Assembly: GCA_016200965.1 (NCBI GenBank)
Contig: JACQDT010000013.1
Coordinates: 1 to 53,993 of the forward strand
DNA from: Candidatus Azambacteria bacterium
GTDB lineage: Bacteria; Patescibacteriota; Minisyncoccia; GWC2-36-17; WO2-46-25
Length of the DNA: 53,993 bases
Reading direction: 5' to 3'
Positions 14,971 through 24,947 of the stretch are shown piece by piece (within the stretch, counting starts at the first letter, position 1; each line of letters opens with the position of its first letter). The notes beneath the pieces were generated by a model. That model had not been told where the DNA came from and made no database searches. It saw only the letters and a program-made list of their open reading frames with translations. The translations under genes were made by a program, and so were the position numbers.

Positions 14971-15190
14971 CCCAGTATATCAACCTCGACTAATGAAACG
15001 TTAGGGTGCGCCGTTGGATTGTCGTGGTCTGCGATATTTGGTCTCTATTGGGATAATCAATGCAAACGAGACGTTTCATCAAACGGCATGCCCAGATAGA
15101 GGACTTCGGCTGACTTCGTCATCATGCCGCTTCGCGGCTGCCGAAGTGCTTCTACTGGGCGTGCCCAGTCGAGGTTGTATTACTGGGCAT
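14971..15190. repeat. Structured repeated element in the lepA leader (copy 1)
   Basis: ~21-bp imperfect terminal inverted repeats; homologous to 53871-53993. Confidence 0.8.
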
Positions 15191-15258
15191 CCTACAAACG
15201 TATCATACGAAAGACGAAAAGTGAAGCGCTCCGAAAGCGGAGCGCGAAACCCCGTACC

Positions 15259-15309
15259 GTCCCGCCCTTTTGGTAAAGAAAGTTCTTTTCCTAACCAAAA
15301 GGGCGGGAC
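15259..15309. mobile_element. ~50-bp hairpin/MITE-like element of the CCCGCCCTTTTG family
   Basis: GTCCCGCCCTTTTGG...CCAAAAGGGCGGGAC; same termini and internal AAAGAA..TTCC as the copies inside rnpB. Confidence 0.75.
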
Positions 15310-15322
15310 TGGTGCGCGGGAT

Positions 15323-15967
15323 CTATTCGTTCTTGTGCGATGAGGTGACAACAAACAAGGCAGTGAAAACGAATGTGATCAAAAGCAGGGAGTAACCAAA
15401 AAACAGGAAACCGAACGTATTGAAATTGTGAATAACCACTCCACTTGAACCTCCGATGAGAAAAGCAAGGCCTAAAAATAACATCGGTTTTTTATGTTTC
15501 TGAATGTTTCTGATGTTAGAAAGAAGGGTAAAGGCAGCTGCAAGCGTGGAACAAAAGAGTATCGCGCCGAATGTCGCGCTGTTCTGAAGCGGATAATGCC
15601 AGTAAATAAGCCAATTATCCATCACGGGCTTCCCTGGAAAATATAGCGCTAAAGTGAAAAACATGCCTGATATGACATTCACCACGGTAGTGACGACGGA
15701 GGGAGACAGCGGAAGGTCTTGAAACCTCACGAACGCCCTTAAGACAAATGCAAACGCGAATAAAACCAAGGAATCACCTAAAACACCGGCAAAGTCGGAA
15801 ATAATCAAAAAGGTTGGATAAATCAGAAAAGCTATCCCAAGTATGGAAAAGAACATGCTGAACTCCCAGTACGGATCGTACTGATTTTTCTTCCATATCG
15901 TGAAAAAATACCTGCCTGTCCAAAGTGCTATCACTGCGGAAAACAAATACACAAAAATAGAAAACAT
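15323..15967 (-). CDS. Multi-TM (~7 TM) membrane protein, paralog 4 of a tandem array
   Basis: Shared motifs WKK..Y.EF, FVLRAFVRFQ, LIYWHYP, TLLSN. Confidence 0.8.
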   Translation of the reverse strand: MFSIFVYLFSAVIALWTGRYFFTIWKKNQYDPYWEFSMFFSILGIAFLIYPTFLIISDFAGVLGDSLVLFAFAFVLRAFVRFQDLPLSPSVVTTVVNVISGMFFTLALYFPGKPVMDNWLIYWHYPLQNSATFGAILFCSTLAAAFTLLSNIRNIQKHKKPMLFLGLAFLIGGSSGVVIHNFNTFGFLFFGYSLLLITFVFTALFVVTSSHKNE

Positions 15968-16626
15968 TATTCTTTTTTATTGGATGAAGTAATAAGAAAC
16001 AGCGTAGCAAGGACAAAAGTAAGCAGAAGGAGGACATAGGACGTCAGAAGCAATCCGAAGGTGTTGCAACTCACCAGCAATACCCCGCCCACTCCTCCTG
16101 TAATAAATCCCGTACCCAAAAAGAGGATCTGCCTCTGATGTTTCTGTATATTTTTCAGATTAGAAAGAAGGGTGATCGCCATGATAATCGTAAAGAGAAA
16201 AATGAGCACACTGTAGACGATATAGTTGGCGGGCGGGTAATGCCAATAGATGAGGTTGTCCGCAAGCACCGGCGCGGTGGGAAACAAAAATGCCACAAAC
16301 GCCTCCGTGGCTGAAGCAAGCGTCACGAGCGCGGTGATCACATTAGGAGAGAATGAAAGCCCCTGAAATCGCACAAACGAACGCAGGACGAACGCAAACG
16401 CGAACAAAGTAAAGAAGTTTCCCACTTGCGCCCATATCCCCGAAACAGGAGACAACCCGAATATGAATGGGGTGATATATATGATAAAGGATGTTGCAAG
16501 CAGAAAAAAGAATATGGAGAACTCGCCGTATGAGGAAAGGGCGTTTTTCTTCCACAGCGCGAAGAAATATCTGCTCGCCCACAACGCTATCACCGCGCAA
16601 AAAAGATAGACGAGAACGGAGAACAT
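15967..16626 (-). CDS. Multi-TM membrane protein, paralog 3
   Basis: Start MFSVLVYLF (ATG at 16626) chosen by homology to the paralogs. Confidence 0.8.
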   Translation of the reverse strand: MFSVLVYLFCAVIALWASRYFFALWKKNALSSYGEFSIFFFLLATSFIIYITPFIFGLSPVSGIWAQVGNFFTLFAFAFVLRSFVRFQGLSFSPNVITALVTLASATEAFVAFLFPTAPVLADNLIYWHYPPANYIVYSVLIFLFTIIMAITLLSNLKNIQKHQRQILFLGTGFITGGVGGVLLVSCNTFGLLLTSYVLLLLTFVLATLFLITSSNKKE

Positions 16627-16628
16627 AT

Positions 16629-17297
16629 TTATGGTTGTTCTTCTTTCTTTAAAAGCGAACTTAGTACGAATAACGCAACGAGAACGAAGGTAATAAGGAG
16701 GAGCACAGAACCCCACAACATCGGCCAAAACGAGTTAAAACCGATGATGAGAATTCCGGCAGCGCCGCTCAGTAAAAACGCGGTACCAAGATATAAGATC
16801 AGCTTCCTATTTTTTTGAATGTTCCTCAAATTAGAAAGTAGAGTCACGCCCATGGCGGCGGTATAGAATGTGAGCAATGCGAGATATATCGCTATGTTGG
16901 GCGGTGGGTAATGCCAATAAATAAGGCCCTCCTTTATTTGCGGCGCACACGAATAATACATCCCCATGCCGAGCTTTGCCAGAGAAGCAAGCATGGCAAG
17001 CACCATGATGGTGTCGGGAGATATCGCACTCATTTGCTGGAAACGCACAAACGCCCGGAGCACAAACGCAAAAGAAAAAAGAATGAAAAAGCTGATCAAT
17101 TCGCCCGCTACGGAAGAGAGCGCGGGGTTTCCAAACAACAAAAGCGCGGGAATGACAAACCCCAGACCCAGAAAAAGAAAGAATGCCCCGAATTCCCGAT
17201 ACGGATCGTACTGATTTTTCTTCCATGCCGCAAAGAAAAACCTGCTTGCCAAAAATGTTATCACTGCGGAAAAAAGATAAACGAAGGTGGAGAACAT
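16629..17297 (-). CDS. Multi-TM membrane protein, paralog 2
   Basis: MFSTFVYLFSAV...FVLRAFVRFQ...LIYWHYP. Confidence 0.8.
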   Translation of the reverse strand: MFSTFVYLFSAVITFLASRFFFAAWKKNQYDPYREFGAFFLFLGLGFVIPALLLFGNPALSSVAGELISFFILFSFAFVLRAFVRFQQMSAISPDTIMVLAMLASLAKLGMGMYYSCAPQIKEGLIYWHYPPPNIAIYLALLTFYTAAMGVTLLSNLRNIQKNRKLILYLGTAFLLSGAAGILIIGFNSFWPMLWGSVLLLITFVLVALFVLSSLLKKEEQP

Positions 17298-17368
17298 GGG
17301 ATTACCTATATGATATCAGATATCACCCCCTGCCATAATTTCAAAAAAGCAACCGTTTCATATACATA

Positions 17369-18025
17369 CTACGGATTGCGCGAAACGTTCATCACGAATA
17401 GAGACACCAAAAGAAATGCCGCAAAGAGAAGCGTGTTTCCCGCCCACAAAAGCTCCATATTCATCGCGGTCGGCAGTAAAACCCCGCTCATGCCGCCCAC
17501 AAAAAACGCGAAACCCAAAAACAACAGCGGGCGCCTATGTTTGCTGACGCCGACCGAATGAGTAATAAGCGTAAAGGCAATGGAAAACGAGAAAATGAAC
17601 ACGAGCGCGCCGAACACGAGCGAGTCAATGACAGGATAATCCCACCGCACCAGCGCATTGTTCAGCGCCGGCCACAGAAACCACGGCACGCTCCACACCA
17701 TAAGTTTCAACCCAATCAGCGCGACGACCGCGATGCTTAACATATTGGGGGAAAAAGGAAGACGCGCAAAATGAGCGAACGCCCGTAGCACAAACGCAAA
17801 CGAAAACAGAACGACGAGCAACCCGACTTCCGCGACCACGCCCGCAAGCGGCACAAAAAACACTGGCGCCAAAAGGTATATCACAAATCCGAGTCCCAGT
17901 ACAAAGAAAAACAGCGCAAATTCCAGATGGTCGGCATTACGGCTTTTTTTCCATACCGCATAAAAATATCTTCCCGTCCACAACGAGACCACGCTACAAA
18001 ATGTATATAACACAATGGAAAACAT
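17369..18025 (-). CDS. Multi-TM membrane protein, paralog 1 (most diverged)
   Basis: MFSIVLY...FVLRAFAHF...LVRWDYP. Confidence 0.8.
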   Translation of the reverse strand: MFSIVLYTFCSVVSLWTGRYFYAVWKKSRNADHLEFALFFFVLGLGFVIYLLAPVFFVPLAGVVAEVGLLVVLFSFAFVLRAFAHFARLPFSPNMLSIAVVALIGLKLMVWSVPWFLWPALNNALVRWDYPVIDSLVFGALVFIFSFSIAFTLITHSVGVSKHRRPLLFLGFAFFVGGMSGVLLPTAMNMELLWAGNTLLFAAFLLVSLFVMNVSRNP

Positions 18026-18059
18026 ATGGCATATTCAGCATACCATATCCGCTCTTGGC

Positions 18060-19748
18060 TCACAATTTATCCTCCCAGTTTATTTGAATAAATGGAATAC
18101 GGGAAATGAGACGCCGCGCCGGAAGTGGAACCGCCTCCCGCAACGCAAAAAACTCGGGTATTTTCAAGAAATAGGACGCCGCAGAGTACGCCAGAAAACC
18201 GGCAAAAAACGCCACCATTCCCTGACTGAAAATGCCTGTAAATTTTTGCATATTCACATGCGGAGCGATGCTATAGAGCGCACCATACACCGCAAGGGCC
18301 ATGACACACGCCGCGAGATTTATCTTAAGCAAAGAAGAAACGATACGCGATCCGTCAAATTGCTCCACACGGCGCGAAAATGCGATATATAACCACGCAA
18401 AATTCACGATTGCGGAAAGTGAAAATGCGATAGGGAGCGCAAGCACTTCGGCTCCCCGAACGTCGGACACCCGAAACGCCGCGCCAACCGCAGAAGCGAA
18501 CACTCCTCCCTCCCGCATGAGACCGAGAAAGAAAAAACTCAACACGACGTTAAGCATCGCCGAACTGACGTTGATGAACACCGGCGTTTTCGTATTTTCA
18601 AGGGCGAAAAAAGCGCGGGAAAATAAAGGAACGAGGGATTGCGCAAACACGGAGATCGCGAACGCACCAAGGGCCGCCGCGGTCAGGCGGGTGTCTTCCC
18701 AGGAGAACTGCCCGTATCCCAAAATCACGCGCACAATCTGCGCGCGCTCAAGAATGAAAAATATGGAAACAGGAATCACAAAAAACAAAATCTGGTTTAC
18801 TGCGCCGTATAAGCGCCCGAGAAATGCCTTTATGTCTCCGGCGGCGGCGTGCACGGCAAGAAACGGGAATACCGCGCTTGCAAACGAGAATGCGACAATA
18901 CCGATGGGCACGAATTGCAGATCGTTCGCAAAATTGAAAATCGCCACGCTTCCCGGCGTGACCGTGGACGCAATCGCCGTAATCACCACGAAATTGATTT
19001 GGGTCGCGGCAAGGCCGACGATGCGCGGCAGAGAAAGCCACGCGATTTTCCGGACCCCCTTATGCGCAGTATCAAATGCAGGCCTGAACGAAAAACCGAT
19101 CTTAAAAAGCGGGGGGAGTTGAATGGCAAGATGCAAAAGCGCGCCCAGCACCACTCCCATCGCAAGCCCGATGACTCCAAAATATTTTACAAAAAAAACC
19201 GCGCCGATGATGATACCCGTATTGTACATAATGGGCGCAAGCGCGAAGCTGAAAAACATTTTATGGGCCTGTAAAATACTCCCCACCACATGAGATATTC
19301 CCAACAATACAGGACTTAAAAACATGACGCGCATCAGCGCCACGGCGCTTTTTTGTTTTTCCGGACTAAATCCCGGAGCAACCAGCGAGATAAGCTCCGG
19401 CGCAAACGCCATCGCGACAAGCGCGGCGCATGCCACTGCGGTCACAAATACCGTCAGCACGATGTGCGTAAGATGCCACGCCTCCTGCAAAGATTGCCTG
19501 CGATAGTGCGCGAACACGGGAATGAACACGGAACTCAACATGCCGACAATGAACAGATTGTACACAAAATCCGGAATAAGAAATGCCGCGAAGTAGGTGT
19601 CCATCACGTCCCCCGCCCCAAATTCTCCGGCAAAAATCCTATTGCGAACAACTCCGAGTAATTTGGATAAAAAAGAAAAAAAGCCGATGGTAAAAGCGGC
19701 TGAGGCGACGATAGTGAACTCTGTATTCAAAAAATACTTCAGCTTCAT
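18060..19748 (-). CDS. murJ: Lipid II flippase MurJ (MviN)
   Basis: SKLLGVVR, DTYFAAFLIPD, SRAFFALENTKTP motifs. Confidence 0.95.
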   Translation of the reverse strand: MKLKYFLNTEFTIVASAAFTIGFFSFLSKLLGVVRNRIFAGEFGAGDVMDTYFAAFLIPDFVYNLFIVGMLSSVFIPVFAHYRRQSLQEAWHLTHIVLTVFVTAVACAALVAMAFAPELISLVAPGFSPEKQKSAVALMRVMFLSPVLLGISHVVGSILQAHKMFFSFALAPIMYNTGIIIGAVFFVKYFGVIGLAMGVVLGALLHLAIQLPPLFKIGFSFRPAFDTAHKGVRKIAWLSLPRIVGLAATQINFVVITAIASTVTPGSVAIFNFANDLQFVPIGIVAFSFASAVFPFLAVHAAAGDIKAFLGRLYGAVNQILFFVIPVSIFFILERAQIVRVILGYGQFSWEDTRLTAAALGAFAISVFAQSLVPLFSRAFFALENTKTPVFINVSSAMLNVVLSFFFLGLMREGGVFASAVGAAFRVSDVRGAEVLALPIAFSLSAIVNFAWLYIAFSRRVEQFDGSRIVSSLLKINLAACVMALAVYGALYSIAPHVNMQKFTGIFSQGMVAFFAGFLAYSAASYFLKIPEFFALREAVPLPARRLISRIPFIQINWEDKL

Positions 19749-21895
19749 TTGATACTCACGATAAATGATTTGTCGGCGGCGAGGTCGCCTGAAAATTCAG
19801 TGGACACACTACCTTGTACATCAGAAATAACTTCTTTTCCCTCCGGCGGGACCAGCGTGAAATGAAGAAACGCGTTTACTCCCGGCTGTTTTTGGAACAC
19901 AAACGAAAGATCGCGCTCGGCCCGGAACGGGAGTGTGTACGTGTAAATGATCCTTGCGTCTTTTTCCGGGATCCATCCCCCAAACACCGTTTTCCCGGAT
20001 TCCTTGAATATGTCCGTGTGCGACGCTTCGTCCGCGCGTAGAGTCGCCCGCGCGAGCGCAAGATCATCGTCAACCCTGAACCCTTCTTTTGCATAATCAA
20101 TCTGCCCAACCACGCCTCCGGAAATGTTTCCTGACGCCTCAAGCAGTTTTGATCCTTCAGGCACATACACGCGCACGTAACGCGACGGACCGCCGTCTTC
20201 TTTCGCTTCTCTGTTTTTAAATTCAATAACCACAGTATTTACGATTTCATCTTCTTTGGTTATGTGCGTTTCCTTCAAAATGCGGGGGGCATCCGCGCCG
20301 CTTTCCCCGCGCACGGCGCCAATATCGCTTAACGTCACGGCTAAATAATCCGCACCTTCGTCTTTCGCGATTCTCCCGTCCCATCCGTTTTGCTCGACCA
20401 TGCTCTGACGCGCCTGATCCTTCGTCCACAGCATAATGTTTTTCTCTTTAAAGCTTGTCGCCATAACAGAAAGCGCCGCCGCCACGCGTTCCTGCGGCAT
20501 GTGTTCGAGCTCGCCCGCAAGCGCGAACACGACATCTTCAAGTGCCTTGGAAGGATCGCCCGATGTCTTTGGGGAAAAATCGATTTCCGTCCGCGCCGCC
20601 ATCAACTCCCCCACATTGAAGGAACTGACGATCACTCCCTCGTTGCGCGGCACCGAGATCGGACCGGTAATATCCAAAAGACGCTTGAACATTTTTTCAT
20701 CCACAGCAATAACTCCGTCTATGTCTTTTCCTCCCGCCTGCGCATAAAAATAGGCGATCTTTTGCGCAGAAAGCGGAAAATCCAAAAACCAATTCGCGTT
20801 GCGAAACGCCCATACGGTAGTCACTTTCTGCAACGGTTCCGGAGGAACCGTGTTGACCAAAAGCTCCCCGTCCAAATTATAGACGTCATCAAACGCCACC
20901 TTAACGATAGCTCCTCCCGCGGTCTCTATAACCCCATATGATCCGATGAGTCCGCCGGTGGCCCGCGGCACGGAAACGTCCTGGACCGCCACGAGAAACC
21001 GGCGCGGCCGGTCAACACCAAGCGCCCAGGAAGCAAGCTCAAAACGCGAAATGAGAAAATCCGTGTTTGCGGCAACGAGCGAAAGCCGCGGCCCGATGAT
21101 AGAGAGACGATCGCGTTCTTCCTGCGTCATATCCCCTTGGGAAACGCGCTCAAGCGCATCCCGCGCGGATGCAAGTTTTTCCTTTGCCTCTTTCATGCGC
21201 GCCAATGATTCCGCTAAGAGCGCGCCTACGGCCGGCACCCGCTTATCTGTTCCCACATGTGCCAAAAGCGACGCCTGGGAAAGCTTAAAAAGCGGGTCTG
21301 CCGCGTCAATCGCCGACTGAGCCGCCTCGGAAAAAATACGGTCAAATTTTGATGCGTTGTTTTCTTCTCCTAATTCCAGAAACGGAATAAAAGAAAGGAG
21401 AGAGGGCACCGCATGCGAAAACGAACTGGAGCGCCGTGCGTCCCCCGCGGCGCGATATGCGTCGTGAAAAGAAAATACCGCTTCGGAAAAATGAAGTCCG
21501 AGAAACGCGTTTTGCGCGGCGATAATGCGGTCGTACGTTTCCGCGGTCGTCGCAAACGGTGCGCCGGAGCGCGGAAACATCCCCCACGCATACGCAAACA
21601 ACAGCGCGATCACCGCGCACGAAAACACGGCCGTACCGATGTTTCCCATGTTCCTAAAAGAAAATCCGCCGCGCACCGAATGACCCGGAAGCACCTGATA
21701 ATACACCGTCATACGACGACTGCTCCGCTCTCTGCGTTCGCGGGTTGCCGTCACCCCTTCTTGCGTCTTCGCCGCGCGATCGTCGGAAGCGAAATACACG
21801 TTGCTCCCCTTGTTTTCATGCTCAAGATAAAACTGAACGAATTCTTCTTCGTCCATATGTTCCGCACGATGAGATTTGTTTTTATCAGTTGGCAT
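19745..21895 (-). CDS. DUF4012-domain protein
   Basis: RATGGLIGSYG, RNANWFLDFPLSA, DGVIAVD, YVRVYVPEGS, QKQPG. Confidence 0.85.
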   Translation of the reverse strand: MPTDKNKSHRAEHMDEEEFVQFYLEHENKGSNVYFASDDRAAKTQEGVTATRERRERSSRRMTVYYQVLPGHSVRGGFSFRNMGNIGTAVFSCAVIALLFAYAWGMFPRSGAPFATTAETYDRIIAAQNAFLGLHFSEAVFSFHDAYRAAGDARRSSSFSHAVPSLLSFIPFLELGEENNASKFDRIFSEAAQSAIDAADPLFKLSQASLLAHVGTDKRVPAVGALLAESLARMKEAKEKLASARDALERVSQGDMTQEERDRLSIIGPRLSLVAANTDFLISRFELASWALGVDRPRRFLVAVQDVSVPRATGGLIGSYGVIETAGGAIVKVAFDDVYNLDGELLVNTVPPEPLQKVTTVWAFRNANWFLDFPLSAQKIAYFYAQAGGKDIDGVIAVDEKMFKRLLDITGPISVPRNEGVIVSSFNVGELMAARTEIDFSPKTSGDPSKALEDVVFALAGELEHMPQERVAAALSVMATSFKEKNIMLWTKDQARQSMVEQNGWDGRIAKDEGADYLAVTLSDIGAVRGESGADAPRILKETHITKEDEIVNTVVIEFKNREAKEDGGPSRYVRVYVPEGSKLLEASGNISGGVVGQIDYAKEGFRVDDDLALARATLRADEASHTDIFKESGKTVFGGWIPEKDARIIYTYTLPFRAERDLSFVFQKQPGVNAFLHFTLVPPEGKEVISDVQGSVSTEFSGDLAADKSFIVSIK

Positions 21896-21932
21896 AAGAT
21901 ATCCTGATATTGCATGGAATTTTTATCATTTC

Positions 21933-22206
21933 CATTCCGCATGATTCGTTGAAAAAACCGTTCGCAGGATGAGCGGGCATGGTGTCCGCCGTACATCGGT
22001 CCGTTAATCCGCCGACCGCTCCAGCGGCGGCCTTGCTTATCCCCGCTACGGTGAGGTTTTGGTGTCGGATTGTACCAAAACCACCGAGCTCGCCTGCTCC
22101 GAAGATTTCCTGACCGATGTACGGCGGACGAGCGAAGCCGAGAGCCGAGCGGCGCGCTCTCGCCGGGAGCGCGAACGCGTGTTTTTTCAGCGAATCATGC
22201 GGAATG
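21933..22206. repeat. 274-bp rod-like hairpin element (MITE or ncRNA)
   Basis: 26-bp terminal stem CATTCCGCATGATTCGTTGAAAAAAC / GTTTTTTCAGCGAATCATGCGGAATG; inner 18-bp GTCCGCCGTACATCGGTC stem; innermost GGTTTTGGT/ACCAAAACC. Confidence 0.75.
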
Positions 22207-22238
22207 AAAAACATAATGTAATGTTAAAATTTTATCCT

Positions 22239-23627
22239 TTAACATGCGGAGCGGTCGCGGAACAACACCACACACGTCCGAAATAAAATTTTTATATCCA
22301 GCAACAACGACCAATTTTCTATGTAATACGTGTCCAATTTTACCTCTTCCTCGAAAGGAAGATCGGACGAGCCGGAGGTCTGCGCCATGCCGGTCATCCC
22401 GGCTTTTATCACCAGCAGCTTCTTATGATGCGCTTCGTACCGCGCGACCTCTTCCGGCTCATGCGGCCGCGGCCCCACCAAACTCATTTCTCCCTTCAAT
22501 ACATTCCATAATTGCGGCAACTCATCAATGCGCGTTTTGCGCAAAAACCTCCCCGCGCGCGTCACGCGCGGGTCATTGTGGATTTTAAACAATGGACCGC
22601 CGTCTTTGCGTTCGTTGTATCGCATAAGCTCCGGCTTAAGCTCGTGCGCGTTATCTACCATAGAACGGAATTTGTACATGGTGAACCGGCGGCCCAGCGT
22701 CACGCGGTCAAGCGCCACCATGACCGGCCCCTTGGAATCCAGCTTGATCCACACCGCCACCACGCCGAAAAACGGCGCGCACAGCGCAAGCCCGAGCGCG
22801 GAACCGAAAAGATCCGCCACGCGCTTAGCCACCCTCCCCCACCCGTCAAGCGCGGTATGCTTGACTTCAATGAGCGGAACGCCGCCGATCACATTCATTT
22901 CCACATGCGTCGTCAGCGTCTGAAACAGCGTCGGGGCGAAACGGAAATTCAAATGCATATCTCTGCAAAACTCCGCAAGCTCGGCAATGGCTTCTTTCGC
23001 GTAATCGGCGTCCCCTACCAACACCGTATCAATGTTCTGACCGGCCATCGCTCTTTTAATTTCGTCTATATCCGTCGCCGCGATGCGCCCCGCCACCGTA
23101 TATCCCAGCGATCGATCGCGCTCCATCTCGCGCGCAAGAATATGAGTGGCCTCGTTGTCGCCCACAAGCAATACGCGCTCCGTTCCCATCCGTCGGGTCG
23201 CAATGAGATACCGTTGAAAGCCCCGAAACACCCATCGCCCCACAAGCACATACACAATGGAAAACGCCCACGAGGCAATGATAATAAAACGGGAATCAAA
23301 CCATTCCCGCGTCGCAAAGATGTACACGATCACGGCCATCACGGCGAACGAACAGGAAGCGATCACATGAAAAAATTCCTGCAAAACATCACTGCGCTGA
23401 GTGCGGTATAAACCGGTCAGCGCGAATACCAACAGCCAGAACGGAATAATGGCGGCGAGCATGAGCGCGTATCGTTCAAACGGTAAATTGAGATAAAAAA
23501 GCACCGGCCGCCATTCGGCAATAAAGGAACTCGTGCGCAAAAAATACGCCGACAATCCCGCGCAAAAAAGCATGAGCGCATCAAGCGGAACCAGCGCGAA
23601 CACAAAAAAAAGAGACGGCTTTCTCAT
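22239..23627 (-). CDS. Polyprenyl-phosphate sugar phosphotransferase (WcaJ/WbaP-like)
   Basis: KRVAD, YKFRSM, DPRVTRAG, DELPQLWNVLKGEMSLVGPRP; start uncertain (could extend to 23663). Confidence 0.93.
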   Translation of the reverse strand: MRKPSLFFVFALVPLDALMLFCAGLSAYFLRTSSFIAEWRPVLFYLNLPFERYALMLAAIIPFWLLVFALTGLYRTQRSDVLQEFFHVIASCSFAVMAVIVYIFATREWFDSRFIIIASWAFSIVYVLVGRWVFRGFQRYLIATRRMGTERVLLVGDNEATHILAREMERDRSLGYTVAGRIAATDIDEIKRAMAGQNIDTVLVGDADYAKEAIAELAEFCRDMHLNFRFAPTLFQTLTTHVEMNVIGGVPLIEVKHTALDGWGRVAKRVADLFGSALGLALCAPFFGVVAVWIKLDSKGPVMVALDRVTLGRRFTMYKFRSMVDNAHELKPELMRYNERKDGGPLFKIHNDPRVTRAGRFLRKTRIDELPQLWNVLKGEMSLVGPRPHEPEEVARYEAHHKKLLVIKAGMTGMAQTSGSSDLPFEEEVKLDTYYIENWSLLLDIKILFRTCVVLFRDRSAC

Positions 23628-23756
23628 GCCATCCATCATACAGAACACACGGTATTTTTTCAATTGGGCAAACTAAAACCTCAACTGGATAGCTAAGGTC
23701 GAAACATGCGAACATTCAGAGCAAACGCGCAAGATAACTATAAGCCGGATTCTGTA

Positions 23757-23806
23757 TCCCGCCCTTTTGGAAAAGAATGTTTTTATTCCATGCCAAAAGG
23801 GCGGGA
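23757..23806. mobile_element. CCCGCCCTTTTG-family hairpin occupying the P19 position of RNase P RNA
   Basis: TCCCGCCCTTTTGG...CCAAAAGGGCGGGA between the P2 3' strand and ACAGAATCCGGC. Confidence 0.75.
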
Positions 23807-24046
23807 CGGCAATCATTTCTCTTGGCGCGCCGTTACCGGCGCGCTCGTGCGACTACCTTGCCCCTCGACGTCGCCTAGGGGCAATTTTGTCTTGCACCTC
23901 GTAAGGATTTGGCCGTTTCACCCCCTCACTTGCAAGCAAGTGAGGGGCTACGCCCCGAATAATCAGGGCGCCCGAATATCGTTTCCAATATCGGCGTCTC
24001 TGTTCGCACCTCTGGGGTCGCCCCCGACGGCCGTTAGCCGCTACGT

Positions 24047-24100
24047 TGCCCAGCCCTTTTGGCAAAGAATAATTCTATTCCATACCAAAAGAGCTGGGCA
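24047..24100. mobile_element. CCCGCCCTTTTG-family hairpin at the P5.1-equivalent position of RNase P RNA
   Basis: TGCCCAGCCCTTTTGG...CCAAAAGAGCTGGGCA just 3' of the GAAAGTCCGGACTC segment. Confidence 0.7.
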
Positions 24101-24117
24101 GGAGTCCGGACTTTCCT

Positions 24118-24436
24118 CCCCGCCCTTTTGATGTTATAGGTTTTGTTGATATTATGATAAGCATGTACTATGTATATCTTATCAAAAGTACAAAGGCGGA
24201 TTTTCTCTATGTTGGAGTAACTGATGATCTCCGCAGGAGATTTTCCCAACATAACTCCAAAAAAGAAATATCAACAAAACCCTACGCACCTTTCAAACTG
24301 ATTTACTACGAGGCCTATTGTAGTAAAAAAGATGCTCTCATCCGCGAAATCAAGTTGAAACATCACGGGAGTGTGATAGGACACCTGAAAAAGCGCGTAC
24401 AGCATGGTTTGAAGGAATAGCATCAAAAGGGCGGGG
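24118..24436. mobile_element. 319-bp GIY-YIG-encoding insert forming P3 of RNase P RNA
   Basis: Perfect 16-bp inverted repeats CCCCGCCCTTTTGATG / CATCAAAAGGGCGGGG between GCAATCG and AGGAAAGTCC. Confidence 0.85.
24163..24420 (+). CDS. Small GIY-YIG nuclease, antisense inside rnpB
   Basis: YYVYLI...LYVGVT...RRRFSQHN...YYEAY...ALIREIKLK; TAG abuts the right inverted repeat. Confidence 0.93.
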   Translation: MYYVYLIKSTKADFLYVGVTDDLRRRFSQHNSKKEISTKPYAPFKLIYYEAYCSKKDALIREIKLKHHGSVIGHLKKRVQHGLKE

Positions 24437-24527
24437 CGATTGCCCGTTATCTTATATCGTTTGCTCTGAATATTCACATTTCAAAGAATACATACACAAT
24501 ACAGAGAATACGCTATATTGTCAACAT

Positions 24528-24947
24528 CTAATTGTCCAACGCTTCATTTACCATTTTATCGGCAAGCGTGTTCTGCTCGCGCCGGACGTGCATGAACGCC
24601 ACGCCCGCGAAATCCGTTTTGAGATTCCATACCTCTATGAACAGCTGTTGGATGTGCGGCGTGGAAAGCTTGTACTGCCCGTTTAACTGGCGCACGGCGA
24701 GCTCGGAGTCCATGCGCATATCTATAATCATTTTTTTTGCTTTTTCTTTGCCGTACAGTTGCTTGGCTTTTTTGAGCGAGAAAATAATCGCTTTGTATTC
24801 GGCTTCGTTGTTGGTGCCGTCCTGGACGCGCTCGCCGTACGTATGAAGCGGCTGTCCCGTGCGCGCGTCCACGAACGCCACCCCGATTGCCGAAGGCCCC
24901 GGATTCCCCCGCGACCCCCCGTCGGTATAGATGATGAGTGTATCCAT
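24528..24947 (-). CDS. rnhA: Ribonuclease HI family protein
   Basis: YTDGGSRGNPG, TNNEAEY, DSELAV, REQNTLADKMVN. Confidence 0.93.
   Translation of the reverse strand: MDTLIIYTDGGSRGNPGPSAIGVAFVDARTGQPLHTYGERVQDGTNNEAEYKAIIFSLKKAKQLYGKEKAKKMIIDMRMDSELAVRQLNGQYKLSTPHIQQLFIEVWNLKTDFAGVAFMHVRREQNTLADKMVNEALDN

Follow-up and report, generated by a model that had tools for sequence, protein, structure and literature searches.

Hairpin elements of one family, one of them carrying a minimal GIY-YIG nuclease gene, in the RNase P RNA gene of a Candidatus Azambacteria bacterium

The RNase P RNA gene (rnpB) of a Candidatus Azambacteria bacterium poses the question of how a catalytic RNA comes to have four helices that match mobile-element hairpins, one of them with a nuclease gene in its loop. 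The DNA considered here, which we call the window, is a stretch of 53,993 nucleotides (assembly GCA_016200965.1, contig JACQDT010000013.1, positions 1 to 53,993 of the forward strand) from a very small groundwater bacterium. It forms contig C24 of a genome of 866 kb, in 42 contigs and with 50% G+C, of which about 11% (about 96 kb) lies outside open reading frames (ORFs). We consider it probable that three helices of this rnpB, one helix of the 16S rRNA and one intergenic hairpin are copies of a single mobile palindromic DNA element with a minimal GIY-YIG gene. If so, the peculiar extensions seen in helices of RNase P RNA and of rRNA in the candidate phyla radiation (CPR), which push genes below detection thresholds, would gain a concrete origin, and mobile DNA would be able to remodel essential RNAs, with element hairpins in place of helix tips of RNase P RNA and 16S rRNA.

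The gene itself, a type A rnpB of about 756 nucleotides including its inserts, occupies 23715-24470 on the minus strand, as delimited by the Rfam model RF00010, the P1 and P2 pairings, the conserved P4 strands and alignment to relatives. The RF00010 match (23734-24101, minus strand; 78.5 bits, E 8.5e-24) does not, owing to the inserts, reach the gathering score of 100, and the model alignment puts the 5' part of the gene in the wrong place. The helix order was established by reading the minus strand and by alignment with the rnpB genes of three same-family relatives, and runs P1, P2, P3, P4, P5, a hairpin and P7, ending with the 3' strand of P2, P19 and the 3' strands of P4 and P1. Both strands of P4 and the complements of P1 and P2 were found in this way, which identifies the RNA as type A, and 261 of 379 aligned columns are identical to the rnpB of one relative (G003). 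An rnpB search of 41 genomes (40 relatives and the window genome) gave a match in 38, spanning about 300-500 nucleotides, with 30 of the 41 over the cut-off. Contigs from two other samples of the same study repeat the arrangement of inserts, one of them covering 23600-24353 with a single difference, and the arrangement is therefore not a mis-assembly; joints with fewer than 30 letters on one side (one run) were left out of this comparison. Passages of Lui et al. (2021, PMC8172020) describe extended helices, and scores under threshold, for RNase P RNAs of the CPR.

According to the alignment with the three relatives, the true P3 of this RNA is a 319-bp insert (24118-24436). It is bounded by a perfect 16/16-bp inverted repeat (24118-24133 and 24421-24436), is flanked by a P2 strand and by the P4 strand GGAAAGTCCGG, and folds as RNA at -108 kcal/mol (z -7.49). 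Within it, on the plus strand and antisense to rnpB, lies the GIY-YIG nuclease gene (24163-24420), which encodes 85 amino acids from the ATG at 24163 or 88 from 24154. The translated ORF (24154-24420, plus strand) is a bare single domain: PF01541 (GIY-YIG) matches residues 4-70 with an E value of 4.9e-17 and is the sole Pfam family over its curated cut-off, T5orf172 (E 0.0052) falling under it. Residues Y16, G18, R26, H30, E50 and E62 are invariant in an alignment of six paralogues. The nearest solved structure is PDB 1ZG2, a UPF0213 protein (E 1.3e-5), which a section of PMC1564403 groups with the bacterial Slx1-like minimal nucleases. The element also contains an internal 15-bp inverted repeat (24139-24153/24267-24281), through which the leader of the GIY-YIG gene pairs with the codons of its conserved STKP motif and which may control translation of the nuclease.

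A first, sequence-only reading of the window had reported that the termini of the insert recur in three hairpins of about 50 bp with a shared core, and our analysis bears this out. The arms, CCCGCCCTTTTG/CAAAAGGGCGGG, which define what we call family A, are shared by P3, by the hairpin between P5 and P7 and by P19. An arm 12-mer and its reverse complement form exact inverted pairs at 15261-15272/15296-15307, 23758-23769/23794-23805 and 24119-24130/24424-24435, and a variant pair is found at 24050-24061 (one mismatch) and 24086-24097 (two mismatches). With up to two mismatches the 12-mer has 17 matches in the window, a number reached by none of 100 shuffles (mean 7.73, maximum 16). The loop core AAAGAA...TTCC is present in all three short window copies, and the short copies are 86-91% alike with this core counted. 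The first of them (23757-23806, minus strand; -30.4 kcal/mol) appears in the RF00010 alignment as an insertion between the 3' strands of P2 and P4, that is, at the P19 position to which it had been assigned. The second (24047-24100, minus strand; -37.6 kcal/mol) lies between P5 and P7, which agrees with its earlier description as equivalent to P5.1; its CCC[A]GCCC pairs with GGGC[T]GGG, so that the A/T insertion is indeed compensated, and one pair on the RNA strand is U-G. The third (15259-15309; -36.0 kcal/mol) is intergenic, just downstream of the minus-strand ORF 15323-15967. None of these three contains an ORF.

A scan of the whole genome for the arms, a search that the same reading had proposed, returned one further pair (C7:2691-2739), which lies inside the 16S rRNA gene (C7:1298-2925). 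Family A thus has five copies, three in rnpB, one in 16S and one intergenic. The four short copies are near-perfect hairpins of -30.4 to -37.6 kcal/mol (z -7.2 to -8.4), and none of 200 shuffles is as stable; their arms, core and mutual similarity place them, at the level of sequence, in one family with the P3 insert. The genome encodes six further GIY-YIG paralogues, of which four are bracketed by an exact inverted repeat of at least 12 bp, one by a repeat of 10 bp and one by none. Three of these repeat families (C, D and E) also occur as copies that lack an ORF. Family C, with arms CCCCTCACTTG, has six copies: two in 16S, one in 23S, one in rnpB, one intergenic and one ORF-bearing (contig C8). 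The rnpB copy is a minimal hairpin at 23922-23947 on the minus strand (-20.7 kcal/mol, z -4.4). Family D has one short copy and family E about 20 copies that lack an ORF and measure 120-235 bp, including one in the window, while family B is represented by its ORF copy alone (contig C37) and has no short copies. Taken together, 8 of the 11 copies of families A and C fall within 7.4 kb of RNA genes, far more than expected, and an enrichment of the kind for which the same reading had proposed a test; as a rough binomial estimate the clustering has a probability of 5e-15 against the genome and of 2e-7 against the roughly 96 kb outside ORFs. At the other paralogue loci of the genome Rfam named one tRNA and nothing else, and it named no host RNA for the copies on contigs C38 and C19.

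Could these helices simply be native to their RNAs, alike through convergence on GC-rich stems or through conversion within the gene, with the GIY-YIG gene in P3 by chance? The P3 consensus of Rfam lends itself to this idea, being C-rich and then U-rich and paired with an A-rich and then G-rich strand, and some relatives have native P3 stems that begin with CCCCG. The same sites are occupied otherwise in relatives. The rnpB genes of same-family relatives are colinear with that of the window and have short, unrelated hairpins at P3, P5/P7 and P19; the native hairpin at P5/P7 has 18-20 nucleotides, and that at P19 in G003 has 17. Where the window has 23756-23809, a related rnpB contig that comes from a different study shows instead 18 other letters, forming a short hairpin of another kind, and a contig from yet another study has the 48-nucleotide hairpin, with three differences, between foreign flanks. 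In an alignment of 16S genes from six relatives, five of the six have a short form at each of the three filled sites (near position 200, helix 17 and helix 40); a different long hairpin stands at helix 40 in G008 and at the other two sites in G012. The earlier suggestion that pre-existing stem-loops are the targets is therefore upheld to this extent, that native hairpins at both the rnpB and the 16S positions were replaced.

The replacements, moreover, are of several kinds. Seeds taken from the inverted repeats of ORF-bearing elements gave 11 hairpin-configured matches in 6 of 31 rnpB genes, reversed seeds gave none, and shuffled seeds gave 0.09 on average and at most 3. P19 is occupied by family A in the window genome, by family C in G007 and by a hairpin of the CCGAGCA(C/T)ATAA type in G004; a further P19 copy of this last type, in G029, was seen by eye alone, the seed scan having missed it. 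One helix is thus occupied by different families in different genomes. With exact arms of 12-14 nucleotides and a loop core that recur in unrelated RNAs and at an intergenic site, with the same arms bounding the closest nuclease homologues in another phylum (below), and with 11 seed matches against about 0.09 for shuffled seeds, a native origin of the helices seems to us scarcely credible.

The link between arms and nuclease was examined through the homologues of the window protein. A search with this single protein, taking one genome per species, gave 86 relatives, of which 80 loci were kept; three of these were dropped from the inverted-repeat test because their flanks were too short. At 25 of the remaining 77 loci the ORF is enclosed by an exact inverted repeat of 10 bp or more, against 5 of 73 in a control with a shifted right flank, and the bracketed loci are concentrated among the closest homologues, in which the gap between repeat and ORF is 11-38 bases. 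Direct repeats of at least 10 bp were found at 17 of the 77 loci, mostly around tRNA genes. Of the matches whose flanks are intact, the best two are genes of Omnitrophota, at 57% and 55% identity and each bounded by ACCCCGCCCTTTTGGCG as in the window, and their genomes also contain two and six ORF-less hairpins with family-A arms; Rfam, run on four of these eight short copies, named no host RNA. Terminal inverted repeats common to ORF-bearing and ORF-less copies of the same genome occur in the window genome (G000, including families C, D and E), in G401 and in G402. Among 22 elements compared, the nearest protein neighbours are mostly of the same terminus type. All three top hits of the window gene share its type, as does one of the three for the paralogue on contig C37, and for each of two Omnitrophota genes with the C37 terminus, the C37 paralogue ranks next after the other's copy. 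By these comparisons terminus and protein are coupled across phyla. A scan of viral contigs gave four loci, which match residues 1-40 only, at 50% identity.

Evidence for insertion as an event comes from a sister element. On contig C37 the family-B element occupies a place between two genes, with TGAA on either side as a target duplication of 4 bp, and the gene downstream now starts at a GTG that uses the last base of the element. In relatives the element is absent from all 11 loci examined, the gene starting with ATGAA in 10 of them, and three related elements in relatives have ATGAA or TGAG on both sides. The sequences therefore read as an insertion with a target duplication and with empty sites in relatives. 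ORF-bearing units were also found within other RNA genes, namely in P3 of a Peribacteria rnpB (sense) and in two 16S genes, one from Moranbacteria (helix 6) and one from a metagenome (helix 40). The orientation of the ORF varies relative to the host RNA, which argues for insertion at the DNA level, tolerated in the RNA because the ends pair.

These observations suggest the following course of events. The full-length form, 256-319 bp in the examples, has a single-domain GIY-YIG gene tightly inside a perfect inverted repeat of 12-20 bp, and the short forms consist of the arms and a small loop only. When the DNA becomes single-stranded, in replication or uptake, the arms would fold, and the cognate nuclease would bind them and nick beside them; it is by this route, we infer, that the nuclease mobilises the hairpins. 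Through copying or repair the element would then reach new sites, with a preference for the apex of a palindrome already there, and in a compact genome of the CPR type the palindromes in which it is tolerated would mostly be peripheral helices of stable RNAs. Since its ends are self-complementary, the insert would in the RNA lengthen the host helix whichever way round it lies, and for this reason P3, P19 and the P5/P7 hairpin of the ribozyme would now be built from element sequence. A bolder version of this proposal is that such genes in hairpins are autonomous transposons of a new prokaryotic class, whose sole protein, an 85-amino-acid nuclease of the Ssn type (introduced below), recognises its own folded termini; that, together with their ORF-less derivatives, they travel by way of a single-stranded intermediate into palindrome apices and gene junctions; that they cross between CPR and Omnitrophota; and that they are a main source of the helix extensions of CPR rRNA and RNase P RNA. 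This we put forward tentatively, as a possibility that is open to considerable doubt.

Several results weigh against the element as we describe it. To our knowledge a GIY-YIG nuclease alone cannot join DNA. No target duplication was seen at any family-A copy on inspection of the flanks, and of 35 ORF elements bounded by inverted repeats just 6 are flanked by direct repeats of 4 bp or more. The window genome has a single ORF-bearing copy per family, and three draft genomes (G013, G034 and G091) have short hairpins and no GIY-YIG gene with matching termini that we could find. The sequence-only reading had taken the short hairpins for non-autonomous derivatives of the nuclease-carrying element. 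They do form one family tied to the nuclease unit, and may be its derivatives; outside the arms the similarity of short and long forms is weak, with matches at 4-10 of 12-18 subterminal positions.

Further points of this kind come from metagenomes. A pattern search for the exact arms returned at least 120 stretches, and 80 loci with 84 hairpins were read among the matches listed, so that at least 84 further copies exist in metagenome contigs; all counts that follow refer to these matches. Their host RNAs were screened with Rfam for 20 of the 80 loci and, for the other 60, by BLAST against the 16S and 23S of the window genome and the 16S of one metagenome locus (L261), so that at these 60 a host RNA other than rRNA could have escaped notice. 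Only 5 of the 84 hairpins fall in stable-RNA loci (three in 16S, one in P3 of an rnpB and one in a spacer between 23S and 5S), and the bias towards RNA genes may thus reflect survivorship in compact genomes rather than targeting; outside compact genomes most family-A copies are intergenic. The stems are constant and the loops hypervariable, a pattern no less compatible with conserved protein-binding stems, or with an ORF that has invaded a hairpin older than itself, than with deletion derivatives.

The second of these possibilities amounts to an explanation in its own right, in which the hairpin repeats are primary, spread or kept by template switching, by host recombination or by a host protein that needs stems, while the GIY-YIG gene is a secondary, homing-type parasite of their loops and the short copies are its targets. 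The constant stems and variable loops, the three genomes with short copies and no cognate ORF copy found, and the single ORF copy per family and genome would all be expected of it. So would the position of 40 of 82 metagenome hairpins within an additional, imperfect palindrome and the occurrence, in the Omnitrophota genome G402, of family-A and family-B ORF units within the same outer palindrome. A distant, full-scoring rnpB (L215, 292 bits) has an ORF-less family-A hairpin as its P3 (664-713), with the same boundaries as the ORF-bearing P3 of the window; P3 may be a favoured target, or even the source of the family-A arms. Template switching, finally, is described as a source of perfect RNA stems in the parts of PMC8794818 on which we draw. 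What speaks for an element that includes its gene is the distance of 11-38 bases between repeat and ORF in close homologues, which makes of ORF and arms a single travelling unit across phyla; the C37 element, which has a target duplication in a genome with no short copies of its family; and the requirement of homing for flanking homology, which is lacking at unrelated sites. On balance we regard the priority of the hairpins as unlikely, if worth keeping in mind. In Omnitrophota-like contigs (L190-L269, L046 and L151) the family-A hairpin, and also a family-B ORF unit, lies inside a larger imperfect palindrome of approximately GTCCGAATTT...AATTCGGAC, which looks like a repeat family of its own.

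A different account would have the hairpins kept for their use to the host, as stems for processing by RNase III or as sites that modulate the uptake or recombination of DNA, with a function in place of parasitism. An RNase III gene was found in the window genome, and the stems are long and perfect. Two copies have a change that gives a U-G pair on the transcribed strand and an A-C mismatch on the other, although this is probably a single event since these copies are each other's closest relatives. Modulation of transformation by Ssn nucleases and their NTS repeats in Neisseria is described in passages of PMC11893778. Same-family relatives, however, function with short unrelated hairpins at the same sites, different hairpin families occupy one site in different genomes, and the ORF may be sense or antisense to the host RNA. 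The distribution is also patchy: the family-A pattern occurs in 4 of 401 genomes of the class to which the window belongs, and in none of 10 same-family relatives. Host use is in our judgement highly improbable as the reason for these hairpins, and we return to the mobile palindromic element and its place among known systems.

The closest of these is the Ssn system. In the sections of Chenal et al. (2025, Nat Commun 16:2388, PMC11893778) that we cite, Ssn proteins, studied in Neisseria and others, are single-domain GIY-YIG nucleases that bind a cognate hairpin repeat (NTS/SRM) in single-stranded DNA only and cut a few bases upstream of it, and the ssn genes are flanked by such repeats (NTS-ssnA-NTS), a layout that the authors liken to insertion sequence elements and to the REP/RAYT system of repetitive extragenic palindromes (REPs) and their associated transposases (RAYTs). 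The words Patescibacteria and rRNA each occur zero times in the portion of that article covered here. Its NTS motif lies beside 6 of our 80 homologue loci (reversed-motif control, 0), and at two of them (L073 and L096; 36-44% identity to the window protein) it occurs to the left and to the right of the gene as inverted copies. The window genome has no match to the canonical motif at up to five substitutions, which must be added to the points against our interpretation. Like the Ssn proteins as described in those sections, the window protein is a bare GIY-YIG domain, within the class of roughly 85-100 amino acids (a size of about 85-94 is shared) and with no added DNA-binding domain; its gene is bracketed by inverted, hairpin-forming repeats (16/16 bp), with four ORF-less copies in the genome; and protein and repeat co-vary. 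Unlike Ssn, where each flank is a self-contained hairpin of 28 nucleotides, the window arms pair across the gene, which lies in the loop; the copies in the window genome are few and mostly inside helices of RNase P RNA and rRNA, and one clade has target duplications. Judged from its sequence, the window protein is related to the Ssn family, from which it departs in hairpin "dialect" and layout, and this relation to the NTS-ssnA-NTS genes leads us to read the element as a gene-in-a-hairpin variant of the Ssn/hairpin-repeat kind that colonises the helix tips of stable RNAs. Ssn hairpin/nuclease pairs would thereby be extended to a compact form with the gene in the loop and with sequence evidence of insertion events and of transfer between phyla. 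Many natural nuclease-hairpin pairs of different specificities would also be the resource for single-stranded DNA tools that the Ssn authors wish for in the same sections (PMC11893778).

Other known systems resemble the element in part. The transposase of the REP/RAYT system is of the Y1/HUH class, and REPs have a GTAG/CGTC head. Membership in this system was rejected, since the window protein is a GIY-YIG nuclease, the arms start with (A/T)CCC and have no GTAG/CGTC head, the copy number is low and copies lie in stable RNA genes. The intervening sequences (IVSs) of 23S rRNA are excised by RNase III and are known at helices 25 and 45. An IVS is likewise a sporadic extra stem-loop at the tip of a stable-RNA helix, with complementary ends and sometimes a small ORF; the IVS class was rejected on the grounds that its members are known at these 23S helices and are not known to be tied to a nuclease gene or to dispersed intergenic copies. 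A group I or group II intron with a homing endonuclease was also rejected. Rfam gave no ribozyme core over 23500-24700 at E <=1, where the matches were RNase P and chance microRNA and small nucleolar RNA models; the protein is a bare domain of 85 amino acids, and the ORF is antisense. In comparison with MITEs (miniature inverted-repeat transposable elements), the terminal inverted repeats common to ORF-less and ORF-bearing elements are MITE-like, and the lack of a target duplication in family A is not.

The palindromic elements of Rickettsia are short, selfish palindromes that essential genes tolerate within them. We know of no nuclease gene associated with them or with the repetitive hairpin-forming elements of sponge mitochondria, and hosts and sequences differ from ours. 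The latter elements, as presented in part of PMC2800124, resemble the window element in being small palindromic selfish DNA tolerated in essential genes. REP/RAYT, in extracts from PMC3733652, offers the likeness of a small nuclease gene flanked by the palindromic repeat on which it presumably acts, with gene-free repeats dispersed. The REP/RAYT analogy drawn in the sequence-only reading consequently survives as a functional likeness, one already in print for Ssn in the sections of PMC11893778 cited above, and fails with respect to the class of enzyme. Passages of Tsurumaki et al. (2024, PMC11270868) report that CPR rRNA genes contain GIY-YIG ORFs in insertions without a match to group I or group II introns, and that the insertions lie mostly at the top or base of a stem-loop, many being short, lacking an ORF and left unexplained as to their nature. 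The portion of that article covered here does not deal with inverted-repeat termini ("inverted repeat" and "hairpin" have 0 occurrences each), short derivatives or RNase P RNA. In the literature searched, which did not extend to the supplementary tables of PMC11270868 and PMC11893778, neither a GIY-YIG hairpin element in RNase P RNA nor a prokaryotic GIY-YIG transposon is described.

Some further observations concern the neighbourhood of rnpB and other GIY-YIG loci. Upstream of rnpB an RNase H-like ORF (24528-24947, minus strand; RVT_3 E 1.8e-17, RNase_H E 9e-9) adjoins the gene. Immediately behind the start of lepA is the family-E element of the window (14971-15187, 217 bp), whose inverted ends, CCCAGTATATCAAC / GTTGTATTACTGGG, are imperfect, and the GIY-YIG-bearing copy of family E (contig C9:1404-1697) is itself hit by a nested copy. 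A host site of the form ...AAACCTT / element / GCTC... is occupied by GIY-YIG elements of three terminus types in four genomes (L056, L060, L164 and L240), and Rfam named no RNA at this site. On contig C8 two GIY-YIG genes (L003, 5020-5915) lie upstream of a tRNA-Ala gene, and the space between the two GIY-YIG genes contains an incomplete 5' half that resembles a tRNA, as well as repeated TCCCGAT...ATCGAGGA hairpins. Four other genomes have a GIY-YIG gene between or right beside tRNA genes, with long direct repeats at three of these loci. The 23S rRNA gene of the window genome (contig C29, 16670-21729) spans 5060 nucleotides, as compared with 2925 model positions, and contains two LAGLIDADG ORFs (E 2e-24 and 3.6e-20) together with several long hairpins, among which are a family-C copy and a hairpin whose arms are CCCAGCACATAAC.

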